The notes under the pieces are model-generated. The model saw only the letters and a program-made list of their open reading frames with translations, did no database searches and was not told the origin of the DNA. DNA of 29,359 bases, taken from assembly GCA_003225655.1 (NCBI GenBank), contig QIAW01000124.1:1-29359 (forward strand). The letters run 5' to 3'. Within the stretch, counting starts at the first letter, position 1. Every line of letters begins with the position of its first letter. This document shows positions 19,220 through 24,106 of this stretch, piece after piece. The DNA comes from Acidobacteriota bacterium (GTDB lineage Bacteria; Acidobacteriota; Terriglobia; Terriglobales; Acidobacteriaceae). The translations under genes were made by a program, and so were the position numbers.

Positions 19220-20083
19220 TTACCGCTTCAGATGAGAATCAAAGAATTGTGAGCTCATGGTTACGAATTTTTCCAGGTTTGCGCGCTTTTCGATGCCGTG
19301 TCTTTCATCGGGAAACTCAACGTAGGTTGCGGGCACGCCGTTTTTCTGCAGCTCAGCCACAAACGGAACCAGAGGGTCGAGCGCGCCGTGAAAGATCAGG
19401 AAGGGAACTGTTTCGCGATCTATGTTAAAGATGGGCGAGGCAGAGCGATAGAGCTGAATTTCCTGTTCTGGTGTTCCGCCCATCAAGTTGTGCACCAGCT
19501 TGGGCACATCGGCTGGAGTTGTAGGTAAGGCAGTTAAATCGGTGGGGCCGTACATATCCACCACACACTGCACGCGGCTGGAATATAAGGCCAATTCCGA
19601 TGGCTGATGGTCCCGTGTCTCGACCGTGCCGAGCAGCGCGACCAGGTGTCCGCCGGCGGAGGCTCCCATGGCGCCGATGTGGTTAGGATCAACACCGTAG
19701 CGGGCGGCATTGGCCCGTATCCAGCGCACGGCGTGCTGCACGTCATCCAGTTGCGCGGGAAAATGGTGATCGGTAGCGTTCACCAGGCGATAGTTCACCA
19801 CGAAGCATACATATCCGCGTTGGGCAAAGCCTTCTGCCAGGGTACGGAAGTCGCTTTTGTCCCCACCGCGCCAGCCGCCGCCGTGAACGAAGATGATCGC
19901 CGGCCTGAGACCCGCGGCCGGCAAACGTATAACATCCAGCAACAGGGGCTCTCCCTGCGCGACGCCGTAGCTGACGTTTTCTTCCACGTGGGAAAGGCTT
20001 CTTTGGTGCGCCAACACCAGTAACGACAACACGGCCAGCAGCAATAACGGCCATACCACCCGGTTTTTGGATTTGACTGACAT
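19220..20083 (-). CDS. Secreted alpha/beta hydrolase esterase (HGGG-type)
   Basis: Signal/anchor N-terminus, FVHGGGW, VNYRL, GASAGGHL (Ser), HGALD (Asp), DERHG (His). Confidence 0.9.
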   Translation of the reverse strand: MSVKSKNRVVWPLLLLAVLSLLVLAHQRSLSHVEENVSYGVAQGEPLLLDVIRLPAAGLRPAIIFVHGGGWRGGDKSDFRTLAEGFAQRGYVCFVVNYRLVNATDHHFPAQLDDVQHAVRWIRANAARYGVDPNHIGAMGASAGGHLVALLGTVETRDHQPSELALYSSRVQCVVDMYGPTDLTALPTTPADVPKLVHNLMGGTPEQEIQLYRSASPIFNIDRETVPFLIFHGALDPLVPFVAELQKNGVPATYVEFPDERHGIEKRANLEKFVTMSSQFFDSHLKR

Positions 20084-20302
20084 TAGAACGCTACCCAGTG
20101 TGGATTTCGCAGGCTTTTGCAGAAGCGCATCATGACTTTTATCTTAGGCATATTGTTATATTCGTAAATTTGTTGGCAAAAGTTCCCCTGGAAGCACACG
20201 AGAGTGTAAACACGCTTAACAACCCGATGTTTCGAATTTATACGAAAGAGAGTGTTGTACACCGCCGCAAGCGTCTCGCCGTCTAATGGCATCTAAGTTT
20301 TT

Positions 20303-21190
20303 GTGAGATTGGCAGGCATAAAGACGGCAATTGTACGCACCTACGATGATGTGAACCGCAACCATACCATGCAGATGGCGGCTGCGCTCTCCTACTATTC
20401 GGTGCTTTCATTGTTTCCCGCGTTGATCTTGTTGTCTGCAGTGGTGGCGTATTTACCTGTTCCAGACCTGTTCAATCAGACCTTGGCGATGATGGCGCGC
20501 TTCCTGCCACCGGATACGATGGGCCTGGTTCGCCGGGTTCTGGCGGATGTGATCTCACCCAATCGAGGAACCTTTCTTTCCTTTGGAATATTGGGAACGC
20601 TTTGGGCGGCTTCAGGCGGATTCTCGGCAGCAATCGAAGCGCTGAACGTTGCGTATGACGTCGAGGATGACCGGCCATTCTGGAAGACGCGGCCGTTGGC
20701 CTTGGCGCTGGCCTTGATAACGGCGGTCCTGTTATTGGTTGCTCTCGTGACCATGATCGTGGGACCCAGATTTGGGGAGTGGCTCGCCGCTCGAGTGCAT
20801 CTTTCCCGGTTATTTATCCTGCTTTGGCCCTATCTTCACTGGACCATCGCCGTTGGCTTTACCGTGCTCGCGGTCGAGGTACTCTATTTTCTTGCTCCCA
20901 ACGTGAAACAGCGTTTTCTGGCTACGTTACCCGGCGCGGTGCTCGCCGTGGGATGCTGGATCGGCTTGTCGTATCTGCTGGGCATCTATTTTCGCCATTT
21001 TGCCAATTTCAATAAAACATATGGCAGCTTGGGCGCAGCTATCGCCTTAATGGTCTGGTTGTACTGGACTGGTTTTGCCATGCTGGTAGGAGCGGAATTA
21101 AATGCCGAGTTGGCCAAGCGGAGCCGCGAGGGCAAACTGGAGCAAAAGCATGAGCCGCCCGCTATCACAAAAATTGATCTCGCAGCGTGA
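20303..21190 (+). CDS. YihY/virulence factor BrkB family membrane protein
   Basis: AAALSYYSVLSLFPAL, LWAASGG, ALNVAYDVEDDRPFW, FLATLPGA, TYGSLGAAIALMVWLY, GAELN. Confidence 0.92.
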   Translation: MRLAGIKTAIVRTYDDVNRNHTMQMAAALSYYSVLSLFPALILLSAVVAYLPVPDLFNQTLAMMARFLPPDTMGLVRRVLADVISPNRGTFLSFGILGTLWAASGGFSAAIEALNVAYDVEDDRPFWKTRPLALALALITAVLLLVALVTMIVGPRFGEWLAARVHLSRLFILLWPYLHWTIAVGFTVLAVEVLYFLAPNVKQRFLATLPGAVLAVGCWIGLSYLLGIYFRHFANFNKTYGSLGAAIALMVWLYWTGFAMLVGAELNAELAKRSREGKLEQKHEPPAITKIDLAA

Positions 21191-21292
21191 CTCAAAGCTC
21201 GCCAAGGACTGATGAAGCTATACACCTCAATCGGCAGAATCACTGTCTTGCGCTACAATGGAAAAGTACCCACCCGCTGTCTTTGAAATCGT

Positions 21293-21368
21293 GGGCGCGT
21301 AGCTCAGTTGGTAGAGCAACGCCCTTTTAAGGCGTGGGTCGCTGGTTCGAATCCAGCCGCGCTCACCA
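21293..21368 (+). tRNA. tRNA-Lys (anticodon UUU), 76 nt, CCA encoded
   Basis: Acceptor GGGCGCG/CGCGCTC, D-arm GCTC-AGTTGGTA-GAGC, anticodon arm ACGCC-CTTTTAA-GGCGT, T-arm GCTGG-TTCGAAT-CCAGC, ending ACCA. Confidence 0.97.
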
Positions 21369-21487
21369 TAGACCCAACCAAGAGCAATTATTGCCGAGGT
21401 CCTTCGCCTTGCGGCTCAGGATTTCGCTTCCGGGCTAGCGCTTACGCCCGCAAGATGGCTCAAGTTCGAATCCAGCCGCGCTCACCA
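21369..21487 (+). mobile_element. 95-bp insert plus 24-bp duplication of the tRNA 3' end (att-like); no integrase
   Basis: GTTCGAATCCAGCCGCGCTCACCA occurs at 21345-21368 and 21464-21487; the insert is palindrome-rich. Confidence 0.7.
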
Positions 21488-21543
21488 GAAATCATATAAG
21501 CACTTCGATTGGAAGAAGAATGAACCGCAAACGTTCGGGATAC

Positions 21544-23139
21544 TTACTCTCCCACGGCAATTTTGGGAGAGGTGTCTTGCTGCGCCAGCCGGATAAGGTC
21601 CAGGCGGGCCCCATCAAGCAGTGCATTCCAACTGGCTTCAATAATATTGTTAGAGACTCCCACGGTTGACCAACTTTTGCCGCCTCCAGCCCACTGCACC
21701 AGCACACGCACCTTGGCGGCCGTGTTATTGCGGGAATCCAGCACGCGCACTTTGTAATCCGTAAGCCGGGCCTGCGTGAGCTGGGGATACATCGAGGAGA
21801 CACATTTTCGCAGGCAAAGATCGAGCGCATGCACCGGGCCTTCACCGATGGCGGTCGCTGTGTGAACCTGATTTCCTTCCGCCACGGTTACGCTGGCGGT
21901 AGATGAAGATTTTCCGCCTTCGGTCAGCTTAGTGACCACTTCGTAGTGCTTTACGTCAAAGAAGTGGGTTTGCGGATGTAAGGCTTCGTAGACCAGCAAC
22001 TCAAACGTCCCTTCGGCAGATTCGAGCTCATAGCCCTGGAATTCCATGTGCTTAATGCGCTCCAGAAGCTCGCGCCTGCTTTGTTCATTGAGGCGTTCCT
22101 CCAGCCCATGCTGCTTGAGCATATAAAGGATGTTGCTTTGTCCCGAAAGGTCGCTGACCAGAACGCGCTGGCTGTTGCCAACAGCTTCCGGCCGAATGTG
22201 CTCGTAGGTGGCAGAGTCTTTGAGAATGGCGCTGACGTGGATACCGCCCTTGTGCGCAAAAGCGCTCTTGCCGACAAACGGCTGCTCTCCTCGTGGGCTG
22301 AGATTGGCTACGTCGGCGATGGCCCGTGCCAGCGAAGTCAGGTGGGCCAGTTTTTCCGCGCCGATCACGTGATGGCCCATCTTCAGCTCCAGGTTGGCGA
22401 TAATAGAACAGAGATTGGCGTTGCCGCAGCGTTCGCCATATCCATTGATACAGCCCTGCACGTGCGTCGCGCCCTGCTCAACCGCTGCTAAAGTATTGGC
22501 GACGGCGACATCACAATCGTTGTGGGTGTGAATGCCAATGACCCCGTCAAAGCGGCGGCGCACCTCCGCCACCACCTCAGCCAGCAGGCCAGGAAGTGTT
22601 CCACCATTTGTATCGCAGAGGCAAAGAACGTCAGCGCCGGCTTTCTGCGCTGCTTCCAGCGTTCGCAGAGCGAAATCCGGGTTGGCGTTGTAGCCGTCAA
22701 AAAAATGCTCGGCGTCGTAGATGAGTTCTTTGCCGTGCTGCTTGAGGAAACTTACGGTTTCCGAGATCAACTGCAGATTCTGTTCTTCGGTGACCCCGAG
22801 GGCCCTCCGGGTGTGCAGGTCCCAGCTTTTGCCGAAAATTGAAACCACGGGTGTGCCGGTTTCGAGCAATCCTTTGACGCTGCGGTCGCTTTCCACGGTA
22901 TTTTTTGCCGAGCGCGTGGAGCCGAAGGCGGTAAGTTTGGCATGGTGCAGCTTCAGCTCCCGCGCGCGGACAAAGAGTTCCTTGTCCTTGGGGTTGGAGC
23001 TGGGCCAGCCGCCTTCGATGTAGTCGATGCCGAGTTCGTCGAGCATTTGCGCGATGAGGAGCTTGTCTTCCAGGGAGAACGAAATCGACTCGCCCTGGCT
23101 TCCATCGCGAAGCGTCGTGTCAAAGATAGAAATCTTCAT
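21544..23139 (-). CDS. cimA: Citramalate synthase
   Basis: FDTTLRDGSQGE, IEGGWPSSNP, IFGKSWDLH, YDAEHFFDG, GIHTHND, FAHKGGIH, LTDYKVRV, SWSTVGVS; 531 aa. Confidence 0.92.
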   Translation of the reverse strand: MKISIFDTTLRDGSQGESISFSLEDKLLIAQMLDELGIDYIEGGWPSSNPKDKELFVRARELKLHHAKLTAFGSTRSAKNTVESDRSVKGLLETGTPVVSIFGKSWDLHTRRALGVTEEQNLQLISETVSFLKQHGKELIYDAEHFFDGYNANPDFALRTLEAAQKAGADVLCLCDTNGGTLPGLLAEVVAEVRRRFDGVIGIHTHNDCDVAVANTLAAVEQGATHVQGCINGYGERCGNANLCSIIANLELKMGHHVIGAEKLAHLTSLARAIADVANLSPRGEQPFVGKSAFAHKGGIHVSAILKDSATYEHIRPEAVGNSQRVLVSDLSGQSNILYMLKQHGLEERLNEQSRRELLERIKHMEFQGYELESAEGTFELLVYEALHPQTHFFDVKHYEVVTKLTEGGKSSSTASVTVAEGNQVHTATAIGEGPVHALDLCLRKCVSSMYPQLTQARLTDYKVRVLDSRNNTAAKVRVLVQWAGGGKSWSTVGVSNNIIEASWNALLDGARLDLIRLAQQDTSPKIAVGE

Positions 23140-23145
23140 TTGTTT

Positions 23146-23294
23146 CTACGAGCAGCGCTCTTGCTCGCAAGTAGGGTGCAACTATTTGCAGAGGAGCAAC
23201 TTCTATTTTCTCCGAAGTTGCCGCGAACGGCAACTTAATACCTCGGGGAGGATTTGAAAGAGAGTACGTGGGGGCACTATCCTCGAGAGTACGT
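23146..23294 (-). promoter_or_regulatory. Structured region upstream of cimA with alternative hairpins
   Basis: 9-bp hairpin 23215-23236, alternative 8-bp pairing of 23196-23203 with 23214-23221, hairpin 23146-23174, direct repeat GAGAGTACGT at 23260 and 23285. Confidence 0.45.
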
Positions 23295-23371
23295 TGTTTG
23301 CGGTCCCAGGCGCGACTGTCGAATTTCGCGCTTCATGGCCAGGGCATTCTGGTTTAAATGAGCAAGTTTAA

Positions 23372-24106
23372 ATGAGTGACAAGATTCATTCCGTACCGGA
23401 CCTGCCGGATGCGGCTGTTCACATCTGGCGCGTCCCGCTGCTGGCCACGCCGGCCGCGCTGGCGTACTATCATTCACTGCTCGCGCCCGACGAACGCGCA
23501 CGCGCCGCCCGCTTTCATTTTGAAATCCATCGCCAGCACTTTGCGATTGCGCGGGCGCGAATGCGTATCTTGCTTTCCGCTTACTCAGGCTGTCTGCCGG
23601 TCCAGCTCGCCTTCAGCTATACCTCGTACGGTAAGCCCTACCTTTCGCATCCTTCGCTAGTATTCAATCTGTCGCACGCGCACGAGATGGCGATTTTCGG
23701 TGTAACCCGAAATCGCGCCATTGGAGTTGACATTGAGCATATACGCGCGGACCTCGCCACCGATGATATTGCAAACCGCTACTTCTCGAAGGAGGAGATT
23801 CGTGCTTTGCGCGCGCTTCCTGCCGAACAGCGGTGCGCCGCTTTCTTCCGCTGCTGGACGCGAAAAGAGGCTTATATCAAGGCCCGTGGCGAAGGGCTCT
23901 CCATGCCCTTGGCCGATTTCGAGGTTTGCCTCGAAGAAACAGAAGAGTTGTGGCTTTCAAATCACCAGGACCCGCACGAGGGCGCCAGATGGCAGTTGCG
24001 GAATGTTCCGGCTCCCGCAGGTTACGTGGCAGCGGCTGCGGTTCAGGGATGTGATCTCAACTTCAAATATATTGATTGGAGCGACGCCCCACCTACAGCA
24101 GCATAA
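23372..24106 (+). CDS. 4'-phosphopantetheinyl transferase, Sfp type
   Basis: YGKPYL, FNLSHA, IGVDIE, WTRKEAYIKARGEGL. Confidence 0.93.
   Translation: MSDKIHSVPDLPDAAVHIWRVPLLATPAALAYYHSLLAPDERARAARFHFEIHRQHFAIARARMRILLSAYSGCLPVQLAFSYTSYGKPYLSHPSLVFNLSHAHEMAIFGVTRNRAIGVDIEHIRADLATDDIANRYFSKEEIRALRALPAEQRCAAFFRCWTRKEAYIKARGEGLSMPLADFEVCLEETEELWLSNHQDPHEGARWQLRNVPAPAGYVAAAAVQGCDLNFKYIDWSDAPPTAA

Follow-up and report, generated by a model that had tools for sequence, protein, structure and literature searches.

Transfer RNA genes are the classic landing sites of large, integrase-bearing genomic islands. Islands and their integrase-less derivatives, the cis-mobilizable elements (CIMEs), are kilobases long, each of them uses one tRNA, and their attP carries the end of that tRNA; the T-loop as a sublocation for tRNA-integrating elements was reportedly treated by Williams in 2002. 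Much shorter units behind a tRNA gene are known from Escherichia coli. The tyrT-distal 178-bp repeats (rtT RNA, RF00391) are structured, protein-less tandem units that are co-transcribed and whose origin is unexplained, and each unit ends in a copy of the tRNA 3' end (19 bp). These repeats and the rtT RNA were reportedly dealt with by Egan and Landy in 1978 and by Bosl and Kersten in 1991 and, to our knowledge, are limited to one locus, one tRNA and the enterobacteria, and are not known as a dispersed family.

Other classes of short or non-autonomous elements are relevant as well. REPs are associated with Y1 transposases, and their loops serve as insertion sites for IS1397; we know of no REP or MITE that targets tRNA T-loops or regenerates 23-30 nt of its target. 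Mauriceville-type reverse transcriptases start at tRNA-like CCA ends, and, as far as we know, group II introns are the only target-primed retroelements of bacteria. The IS91 family makes no target duplication, uses a 5'-GTTC/CTTG target that abuts the ori end, has subterminal palindromes and is cleaved at GTTC at the ter end; in addition, its one-ended transposition carries adjacent DNA, and single-stranded circles are formed (PMC13181058).

In this study, we analyzed a tRNA-Lys gene in acidobacterial DNA from soil metagenomes; the gene is followed by a 95-nt insert and by a second copy of its own 3' end. The insert contains a short, structured sequence, further called element E, that recurs behind many different tRNA genes in related genomes. 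No description of such a mobile element was found in full-text searches of the literature; what papers on Geobacter “multicopy sequences” mention is a single repeat that runs into a tRNA-Asn.

The tRNA-Lys locus and element E

The window, i.e., the whole 29,359-nt stretch of DNA that was analyzed, contains an intact tRNA-Lys(UUU) gene with an encoded CCA (21293-21368, plus strand; ARAGORN, Rfam tRNA 74.7 bits), which is the target gene. Its last 24 nt (21345-21368, plus strand) comprise G53, the T-loop, the 3' strand of the T-stem, the 3' strand of the acceptor, the discriminator and CCA, and are part of the working tRNA. An exact copy of these 24 nt without tRNA positions 1-52 is located at 21464-21487 on the same strand, 119 nt further, and directly abuts the ...CTCAA of E. 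The two copies are identical from G53, which immediately precedes the T-loop TTCGAAT, through to CCA. The repeat search returned one such exact 24-nt direct repeat (GTTCGAATCCAGCCGCGCTCACCA), for which the chance expectation in 29 kb is ~1e-6 (from the window length and 4^24), and no third occurrence of GTTCGAATCCAGCCGCGCTCACCA was found in the 4.1-Mb assembly.

The 95 nt between both copies consist of a 27-nt spacer (21369-21395, plus strand), extending from CCA to E and not conserved across the family, and of element E itself (21396-21463, plus strand), which is ~68 nt long, folds into two hairpins and has a fixed 3' end ...GGCTCAAG, corresponding to GGCTCAA(G). The assignment is based on nhmmer (4.6e-12), covariance model R1 (68.4 bits) and covariation. 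In this copy, hairpin 1 is formed by 21398-21403 pairing with 21418-21423, and hairpin 2 by 21426-21435 pairing with 21446-21459. The spacer and the flank after the distal copy are unrelated. The upstream neighbour is a gene for a BrkB/YihY-type membrane protein (20303-21190, plus strand; Pfam PF03631, 1.3e-67), which lies outside the element, while a 2-isopropylmalate/citramalate synthase-like gene (21544-23139, minus strand; Pfam HMGL-like and LeuA_dimer) follows downstream in convergent orientation; both are given for context. No integrase was present among the open reading frames scanned around the site (19220-24106), and neither an integrase nor a transposase was found near the insert.

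A sequence-only reading of the locus had described an exact 24-bp duplication of the tRNA-Lys 3' end at a distance of 119 bp, with identity beginning at the base before the T-loop, and an insert without integrase, all of which is borne out by the features above. Of the palindromes it listed in the insert, CGGGC/GCCCG forms the hairpin 2 stem and GCC-TTGC-GGC caps hairpin 1, whereas GCAAT/ATTGC lies in the non-conserved spacer and is absent from the relatives. The minus-strand motif ATCCTGAG-N8-CGAAGGACCTC, which it took for a REP-like motif, corresponds to hairpin 1 of E and is indeed repeated in the source genome. Its guess of an acidobacterial origin agrees with the closest relatives of the neighbour gene, which are Terriglobia/Bryobacterales MAGs (Bryobacteraceae, Candidatus Solibacter).

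The tRNA-Lys insertion is common to three genomes of the same genus, specifically the source genome G000 (one unit), G002 (two units) and G003 (a truncated E), and is therefore older than these species. The elements of G000 and G002 are ~85% identical, and the repeat in G000 is still 24/24. The LeuA-like neighbour also follows the tRNA-Lys array in G002 and is assembled apart from the array in G003; outside the source genus, no leuA-like gene was seen beside tRNA-Lys. The window insert is an old single-unit copy of the E family.

Members of this family are gene-less, ~65-75 nt long, contain two GC-rich hairpins and end in ...CGGCTCAAG. The consensus is GGTCCTTCG-nnnn-GCTCAGGATTTCGCC-TGCGGGC-(loop)-GCCCGCA-AAACGGCTCAAG, in which the loop measures ~6 nt or ~15 nt and at times has far longer insertions. 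The source genome holds 19 E copies (nhmmer hits), and their alignment yields two hairpins with compensatory changes. The covariation set comprises 137 copies, 123 of which are distinct; in this alignment, which was fitted to the model and hence favours structure, 97.3% of the cells are paired and 227 cells (137 copies) are changed on both sides. The covariation score amounts to 0.323, compared to 0.114 for shuffles (0/500 reached the observed score) and at most 0.083 for slid controls. Pair swaps are frequent (UA/CG 69:50, CG/GC 66:55, also UA/AU/GC). At the two basal pairs of hairpin 1, 117 and 90 of the 123 distinct copies, respectively, have G.U, and these conserved G.U pairs imply that the fold belongs to the tRNA-sense strand, be it RNA or DNA, rather than to its complement. 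Since the lone window copy is not unusually stable (DNA fold z = -0.63), the evidence for structure is the covariation across copies.

The distribution of E is narrow. An Rfam scan of 20800-22000 at E <= 10 gave the tRNA as sole match, and the RtT RNA model (RF00391) did not match in this region at that threshold. In a 151-genome sample of the phylum, matches to the covariance model are confined to the source family and one genome of a sister family, and the hosts are soil Acidobacteria (Bryobacterales). No match to E was found in plasmid and phage collections. Hairpin 1 is common to E and a second repeat family, about eight of the other E copies in the source genome lie within the loop of a different palindromic repeat, and the loops of E itself harbour additional nested modules.

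Junctions, spacers and arrays at tRNA genes

The junction pattern GGATYTCG...TCAAG|TTCRANTC-N12-CCA was searched in 151 genomes of the source family. It matched 130 times in 38 of these genomes (33 of 142 genera), which are lower bounds, given that the majority of genomes are MAGs and that repeats next to tRNAs are poorly assembled in these, and which stem from related genomes that are non-independent samples. The reversed pattern did not match at all in the same 151 genomes. The layout is invariant and on one strand: the tRNA with its CCA, a spacer, E, and ...CTCAAG|TTCRANTC...CCA, with the final segment being a copy of the T-loop-to-CCA stretch of its own upstream gene.

A total of 85 loci was examined, with a match defined as the 23 nt after E recurring at most 115 nt upstream with at most three mismatches; ARAGORN in batch mode missed several obvious tRNAs, and the proximal copies were located by matching to the distal copy. 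The distal copy corresponds to the gene just upstream in 79 of the 85 loci, 64 of which are perfect (23/23 nt), while ~6 have no adjacent proximal copy. Decayed distal copies exist. Altogether, 52 distinct 3'-end sequences are found behind E, and the upstream genes represent, counted by amino acid, 16 or more kinds of tRNA, together with tmRNA. The targets include tRNA Lys, Met, Arg (five anticodons), Val, Asn, Cys, Leu, Ser, Thr, Pro and Ile, a Sec-like gene, and tmRNA. In E-rich genomes, such junctions account for most of the true E copies; in G305, for instance, a T-loop follows 21 out of 24. The question which of the two copies better fits the 5' half of the tRNA gave a mixed result. All standard tRNA genes called have an encoded CCA (31/31), and a CCA test for an RNA template is uninformative for that reason.

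The 3' junction of E is fixed at G53|T54. E copies away from tRNAs mostly continue as CTCAAG|TT; because the E end has GTT in common with G53-T54-T55, the joint is defined to within those bases. The 5' side is much looser. Spacers are 6-91 nt long, with clusters near 9-11 and 24-30 nt, and the duplication runs from 0 to 9 or more nt past CCA. At 18 of 75 loci, the spacer and the flank after the distal copy are alike in at least their first 3 nt (1.6% expected by chance), and at ~8-11 of 74 loci the spacer resembles this flank along its whole length (L093, L116, L120, L081). In L093, the 23-nt distal copy has no mismatch, against ~6 in the 30-nt spacer. Spacers do not align across loci, save for a faint likeness among Lys and Arg units of the source genus, and this rules out that the spacers form a 5'-truncation series of a longer element.

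Several loci deviate from the standard layout. In L038, the middle of a tRNA-like gene is replaced by E, so that a deletion rather than a duplication is present, with the left junction near position 38 (read by eye) and the right one at T54. The E copy of L058 is truncated at its 5' end but retains the 3' junction. A mirror class is found at tRNA 5' ends with E in antisense orientation, specifically G000:C676 (tRNA-Thr), G015:C11 (tRNA-Arg(CCT), two tandem units) and G295:C7 (tRNA-Thr). Here, the first 9-10 nt of the tRNA, together with a few bases of its leader, are duplicated directly next to the CTCAAG end, the joint is GAG|CTA, and a spacer separates the other end of E from the intact gene.

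A single unit is present in 52 loci, and tandem units in 27, with arrays of up to six near-identical units (tRNA-Arg(TCT), six; tRNA-Cys, five; tRNA-Met, Leu and Ser, four each). Mixed E subtypes occur within the arrays L078 (tRNA-Cys; unit 1 versus units 2-5), L081 (unit 4), G015:C54 and G302:C289, indicating that the same tRNA was hit more than once by independent insertions, while the identical units point to local amplification too. Seventy-five out of 79 arrays, including that of the window, end in a copy of the tRNA end followed by unrelated flank, and the other four end in a truncated E.

Probable mobility of E and possible origins of the duplications

Based on the pattern of its copies, E is probably a non-autonomous mobile element of Bryobacterales-type Acidobacteria with the T-loop of tRNA and tmRNA genes as its preferred target. 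Neither a single collapsed island nor a one-off slippage event can have placed these 70 nt at dozens of genes across 33 genera. The sequence-only reading had offered both a tRNA-targeting mini-element mobilised in trans and an island scar or local tandem duplication; the presence of E behind many tRNA kinds, each with its own 3' duplicate, supports the former and disfavours the latter.

Three further traces of movement named in that reading, i.e., empty sites in relatives, circular junctions in reads and a co-occurring enzyme, did not turn up. Comparison of G000:C658 with G001:C147 (tRNA-Arg) gave no empty site, with synteny upstream only and a weak likeness between spacer and trailer (z about 2, p = 0.05), and none was found between G305 and G004, where the loci are not syntenic. 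A search of metagenome contigs for the exact “empty allele” pattern returned nothing, and no junction joints were found in Logan contigs (three DNA runs and one RNA run), which break at the tRNA. Y1 transposases are near-universal regardless of E (134 of 151 genomes), and the flanks of 14 Y1 genes examined in E-rich genomes were free of E. Y2 (IS91-type) transposases are encoded by 15 of 38 E-positive versus 31 of 113 E-negative genomes, are absent from the high-copy genomes G015, G299, G302 and G004, and have no E near their genes. We should note that the same-genus synteny and the Y1 and Y2 tallies include the unpublished genomes G005 and G192, on which no specific claim rests. In a soil metatranscriptome, one contig spans a tRNA-Lys-like gene into an E copy, which hints at co-transcription of both.

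As to how the duplication arises, we lean tentatively towards a copying model in which insertion starts from the 3' end of E. A break at the T-loop would be joined to, or prime on, the 3' end ...CAAGTT of E (with GTT common to the T-loop), and the template would be a sense-strand RNA or a single-stranded DNA copy of E. The second junction would form at a variable point, usually at or just past the end of the gene, and gap filling would then duplicate the stretch between both junctions. The T-loop-to-CCA stretch, sometimes with a few bases beyond, would thus come to lie on both sides of the insert and the gene would remain whole, the surviving events being those that leave the tRNA intact. Units would subsequently multiply in place to form tandem arrays, and the mobilising enzyme would act in trans. 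The copying model explains why the 3' junction is fixed and the 5' junction loose, as well as the variable duplication, the deletion in L038, the 5'-truncated copies and the mirror class. A point against it is that the E copies of the source genome away from tRNAs have no flanking duplications, which are seen at the tRNA-linked copies only, as a general duplication-making insertion would predict them at the former as well. An RNA intermediate would be compatible with the G.U pairs on the sense strand and with the metatranscriptome contig. By analogy, E might even be a bacterial SINE-like element, in which a small structured RNA arising by read-through from tRNA genes would be copied back into DNA at T-loops by a trans-acting reverse transcriptase, with target priming or template switching from the tRNA's own 3' end regenerating that end; we regard this reading as rather improbable.

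The strongest rival to the copying model, possible albeit on the unlikely side, holds that the mobile unit itself carries the tRNA end, i.e., GTTCGAAT...CCA followed by a donor trailer (the spacer) and E, so that no true target duplication is involved. Such a unit would be excised between the T-loop and the 3' end of E and reinserted at the T-loop of a tRNA of the same kind, and could be moved by a trans-acting, T-loop-specific tyrosine recombinase (as for CIMEs) or by an IS91/Helitron-like rolling-circle enzyme. In the rolling-circle version, E with its subterminal hairpins would represent an orphan ‘ori’ end, and the surrogate stop and the insertion target would both be GTTC (G53-C56). The IS91-family rules fit well here: the end of E reads ...CTCAA|GTTC, the T-arm is a hairpin beside GTTC, tandem arrays are natural for rolling circles, and internal GTTC is depleted in the units (18 versus ~38 expected), although it does occur in 14 of 79 units. 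A carried tRNA end would also better explain the loci in which the spacer is like the native flank or alike in its first bases only, the similar spacers at three tRNA-Arg genes whose 3' ends are identical or almost so, and the persistence of an exact distal 23 nt while the neighbouring DNA diverges. However, a unit with the end of one tRNA cannot enter a different tRNA without breaking it, and yet 52 ends are served. This difficulty holds for any conservative site-specific model, be it an integrase, an integron-like G|TT exchange or an IS91-like rolling circle, because the unit already carries a tRNA end. At tRNA-Arg(ACG) in G002, moreover, both copies have the ACG-specific base despite a spacer that resembles those of the CCG/TCG units. 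The Y2 tallies given above argue against a rolling-circle agent, the mirror class joins at GAG|CTA instead of GTTC, and the left junction of L038 is of the deletion type. A tyrosine integrase in particular is disfavoured by the constant CTCAAG of E left of the crossover, where no mimicry of the variable T-stem arm is seen.

The remaining explanations dispense with a mobile E and are weaker still. A host RNA module, in which E and the tRNA-end copy would form a co-transcribed trailer for processing, termination or regulation and the duplication would be kept by selection as in an rtT-like unit, has in its favour the fold with G.U pairs on the tRNA-sense strand, the identity of the distal 23 nt while spacer and E diverge (G000/G002, L093) and the metatranscriptome contig across a tRNA and an E copy. 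We nevertheless give it little credence, as E is patchy (38 of 151 genomes, with different tRNAs in different genomes), varies in copy number from one to six, has decayed distal copies, occurs away from tRNAs and nested in other repeats, forms an antisense mirror class at 5' ends and has no Rfam match, RtT included. Host use and mobility could, for that matter, coexist. A collapsed island scar, i.e., an integrase island in tRNA-Lys that was deleted down to attL, attR and 95 nt, is very unlikely, even though T-loop-to-3'-end identity is the classic signature of integration at the T-loop, a 1.7-kb insert lies inside an E unit at tRNA-Arg(CCG) in G002, and other island ends read ...GTTCTNAAATCGTC followed by 15 nt of tRNA end (G000:C131, L050, L134). 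The mini form with the same ~70-nt element is found in 79 of the 85 loci, no full island carrying E at one end was seen among these 85, no integrase is located near the insert in the window and E occurs away from tRNAs too; that islands at dozens of tRNAs should have collapsed independently more than 100 times, and each time to the same 70 nt, is not credible. The least likely of the explanations, to the point of being negligible, is that replication slippage or unequal crossing-over acted locally and alone, with no mobile element at all. The GTT microhomology between the E end and the T-loop would suit it and arrays of identical units surely grow and shrink in this way, but slippage would leave arrays ending in E, in contrast to the 75 of 79 that end in a tRNA-end copy, and it does not explain the same element behind dozens of tRNAs in many genera.

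Relation to described systems and implications

E has features of several described systems, yet it fails a defining feature of each of them. Like the rtT repeats, its units are protein-less, lie directly behind a tRNA, are arranged in tandem and end in a copy of the tRNA 3' end, but E is a dispersed 70-nt family that always joins at T54, is found at tmRNA and at no fewer than 16 kinds of tRNA, and resembles the rtT repeats neither in sequence nor by model. It shares with islands and CIMEs the direct repeat from the T-loop to CCA or just past it, the intact tRNA, the tandem accretion and a plausible mobilisation in trans. E differs from them in its size of ~70 nt, in its dozens of tRNA targets, in having no arm-type repeats and in the constant CTCAAG that takes the place of the T-stem arm. 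Integrating elements keep to one tRNA per lineage, whereas a single lineage of E is found with 52 distinct tRNA/tmRNA 3' ends.

E resembles REPs, BIMEs and MITEs as a short, GC-rich, hairpin-forming, intergenic, multi-copy and modular sequence, with the difference from REP/RAYT systems that no Y1 gene flanked by E was found (14 loci). The likeness to IS91, ISCR and Helitrons concerns the GTTC abutting a fixed, hairpin-bearing end, a variable other end that captures DNA, and single-strand intermediates and tandem products (PMC13181058). E is unlike these elements in that it shows no association with a transposase, its T-loop target is stricter than a bare GTTC and the junction of the 5' mirror class differs. 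By analogy, target-primed elements of the SINE/LINE type are comparable to E in the precise 3' junction with microhomology, the variable 5' junction with extra bases, the variable duplication or deletion and the 5' truncation, and SINEs may additionally be likened to it as short, non-autonomous sequences with an RNA-type fold on the sense strand. In contrast to these, E has no poly-A-like tail.

For genome analysis, E units matter since they break assemblies at tRNA genes, lead island predictors to false “att” sites and give rise to spurious small open reading frames in annotations of Acidobacteria. With more than 130 junctions and arrays of up to six units, the family forms a system for studying the origin of tRNA-end duplications like those of the rtT repeats. 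If the SINE-like reading were true, E would be the first bacterial repeat of the retrotransposon type that is short and not an intron, and it could explain the rtT puzzle of E. coli. More generally, a gene-less 70-nt element uses the landing spot of islands in dozens of tRNA genes and tmRNA and rebuilds the gene end. E thereby suggests that the universally conserved T-loop is targeted in a way not recognised so far, possibly by a new enzyme or by a known enzyme that acts in an unfamiliar manner.

Hairpin loops and shared modules

E, the gene-less mini-element of two hairpins and about 68 nt found behind tRNA genes, can be nested in another palindromic repeat and can itself hold extra modules. 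A second palindromic repeat in the window's own genome (G000) carries E in its loop, with the organization GTGTGGGCA-[E]-TGCCCACACGACAGCCGGCGGGACGCCGGCGCTAC (contigs C204:5380-5536, C185:11671-11732, C323:5285-5352, C232:7733-7784, C61, and C668). The E-free (‘empty’) form of this repeat, GTGTGGGCAGGATGCCCACAC..., is located upstream of C281:643. The loop of hairpin 2 of E in turn holds nested extra modules resembling hairpin 1, e.g., in C204 and in loci L035 and L042. Hairpin loops seem to be the shared landing place.

Another repeat family, of the form ...GGTCCAATTTA-N-GGAGGTCCTTCGCCTGCGGCTCAGGATGACA, also occurs in G000 (C611:249-274, C168:5071-5096, C173:2592-2609, C235:2328-2353, and C671:2052-2073). 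Hairpin 1 is the only part that this family has in common with E, which suggests that the building blocks are modular and BIME-like.

Variation in the window copy and possible read-through transcription in another organism

A strain variant from another soil sample (run X5, record 28) contains six extra bases (GCTCGC) at window position 21433, within the hairpin 2 loop of the window's own E copy; the length of this loop is free to vary. A soil metatranscriptome contig of 180 nt (run X20, record 11) matches a tRNA-Lys-like gene over window positions 21291-21365 with four differences, and runs on for 104 nt through a short spacer into the first part of an E copy (...GGTCGAGGTCCCTCACTGCGT). The contig possibly represents read-through transcription in another organism, or it may be DNA carry-over.

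Mirror-image copies and broken tRNA genes

In a mirror-image class, E is located on the 5' side of the tRNA in antisense orientation, and a copy of the first 9-10 nt of the tRNA plus a few leader bases is joined to the CTCAAG end of E. Loci of this class are found in G000 (C676:1909-2013) and in two related genomes, G015 (C11, L156:1490-1745), where two units are arranged in tandem, and G295 (L155, C7:620-720).

E is also found inside a tRNA-like gene within a tRNA cluster of genome G020 (L038:100-235; C9:79700-79835). The 5' part of the gene, to about position 38, is followed by E and then by the stretch from the first T-loop base (T54) to CCA, so that the gene is split without a rescuing duplication. 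About 100-200 nt past the E copy on the reverse strand of L155 (G295, C7) is a tRNA-Thr-like sequence, with about 60 nt apparently interrupting it after the anticodon stem. Together with the adjoining intact duplicate tRNA-Thr, it forms another pair of a broken and an intact tRNA.

Other inserts at tRNA 3' ends

A different kind of insert has the terminus AAGTTCTNAAATCGTC, followed by just the last ~15 nt of the tRNA, a sublocation that differs from that of E (G000, C131:3540-3570, minus strand; G002, C42, L050:3050-3126; G299, C4, L134). One such insert, 1.7 kb long, breaks up an E unit behind tRNA-Arg(CCG) in G002.

Two further mini-inserts are unrelated to E but follow the same logic. Behind tRNA-Ala in G277 (L084, C15:93990-95070), tandem 62-nt units each contain a small hairpin and a T-stem-to-CCA copy, and behind tRNA-Arg(CCT) in G015 (C11, L156:1823-1930), a hairpin-rich insert of ~90 nt leads into a 27-nt duplicate of the end of the tRNA. 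The duplication of tRNA ends is therefore not peculiar to E.
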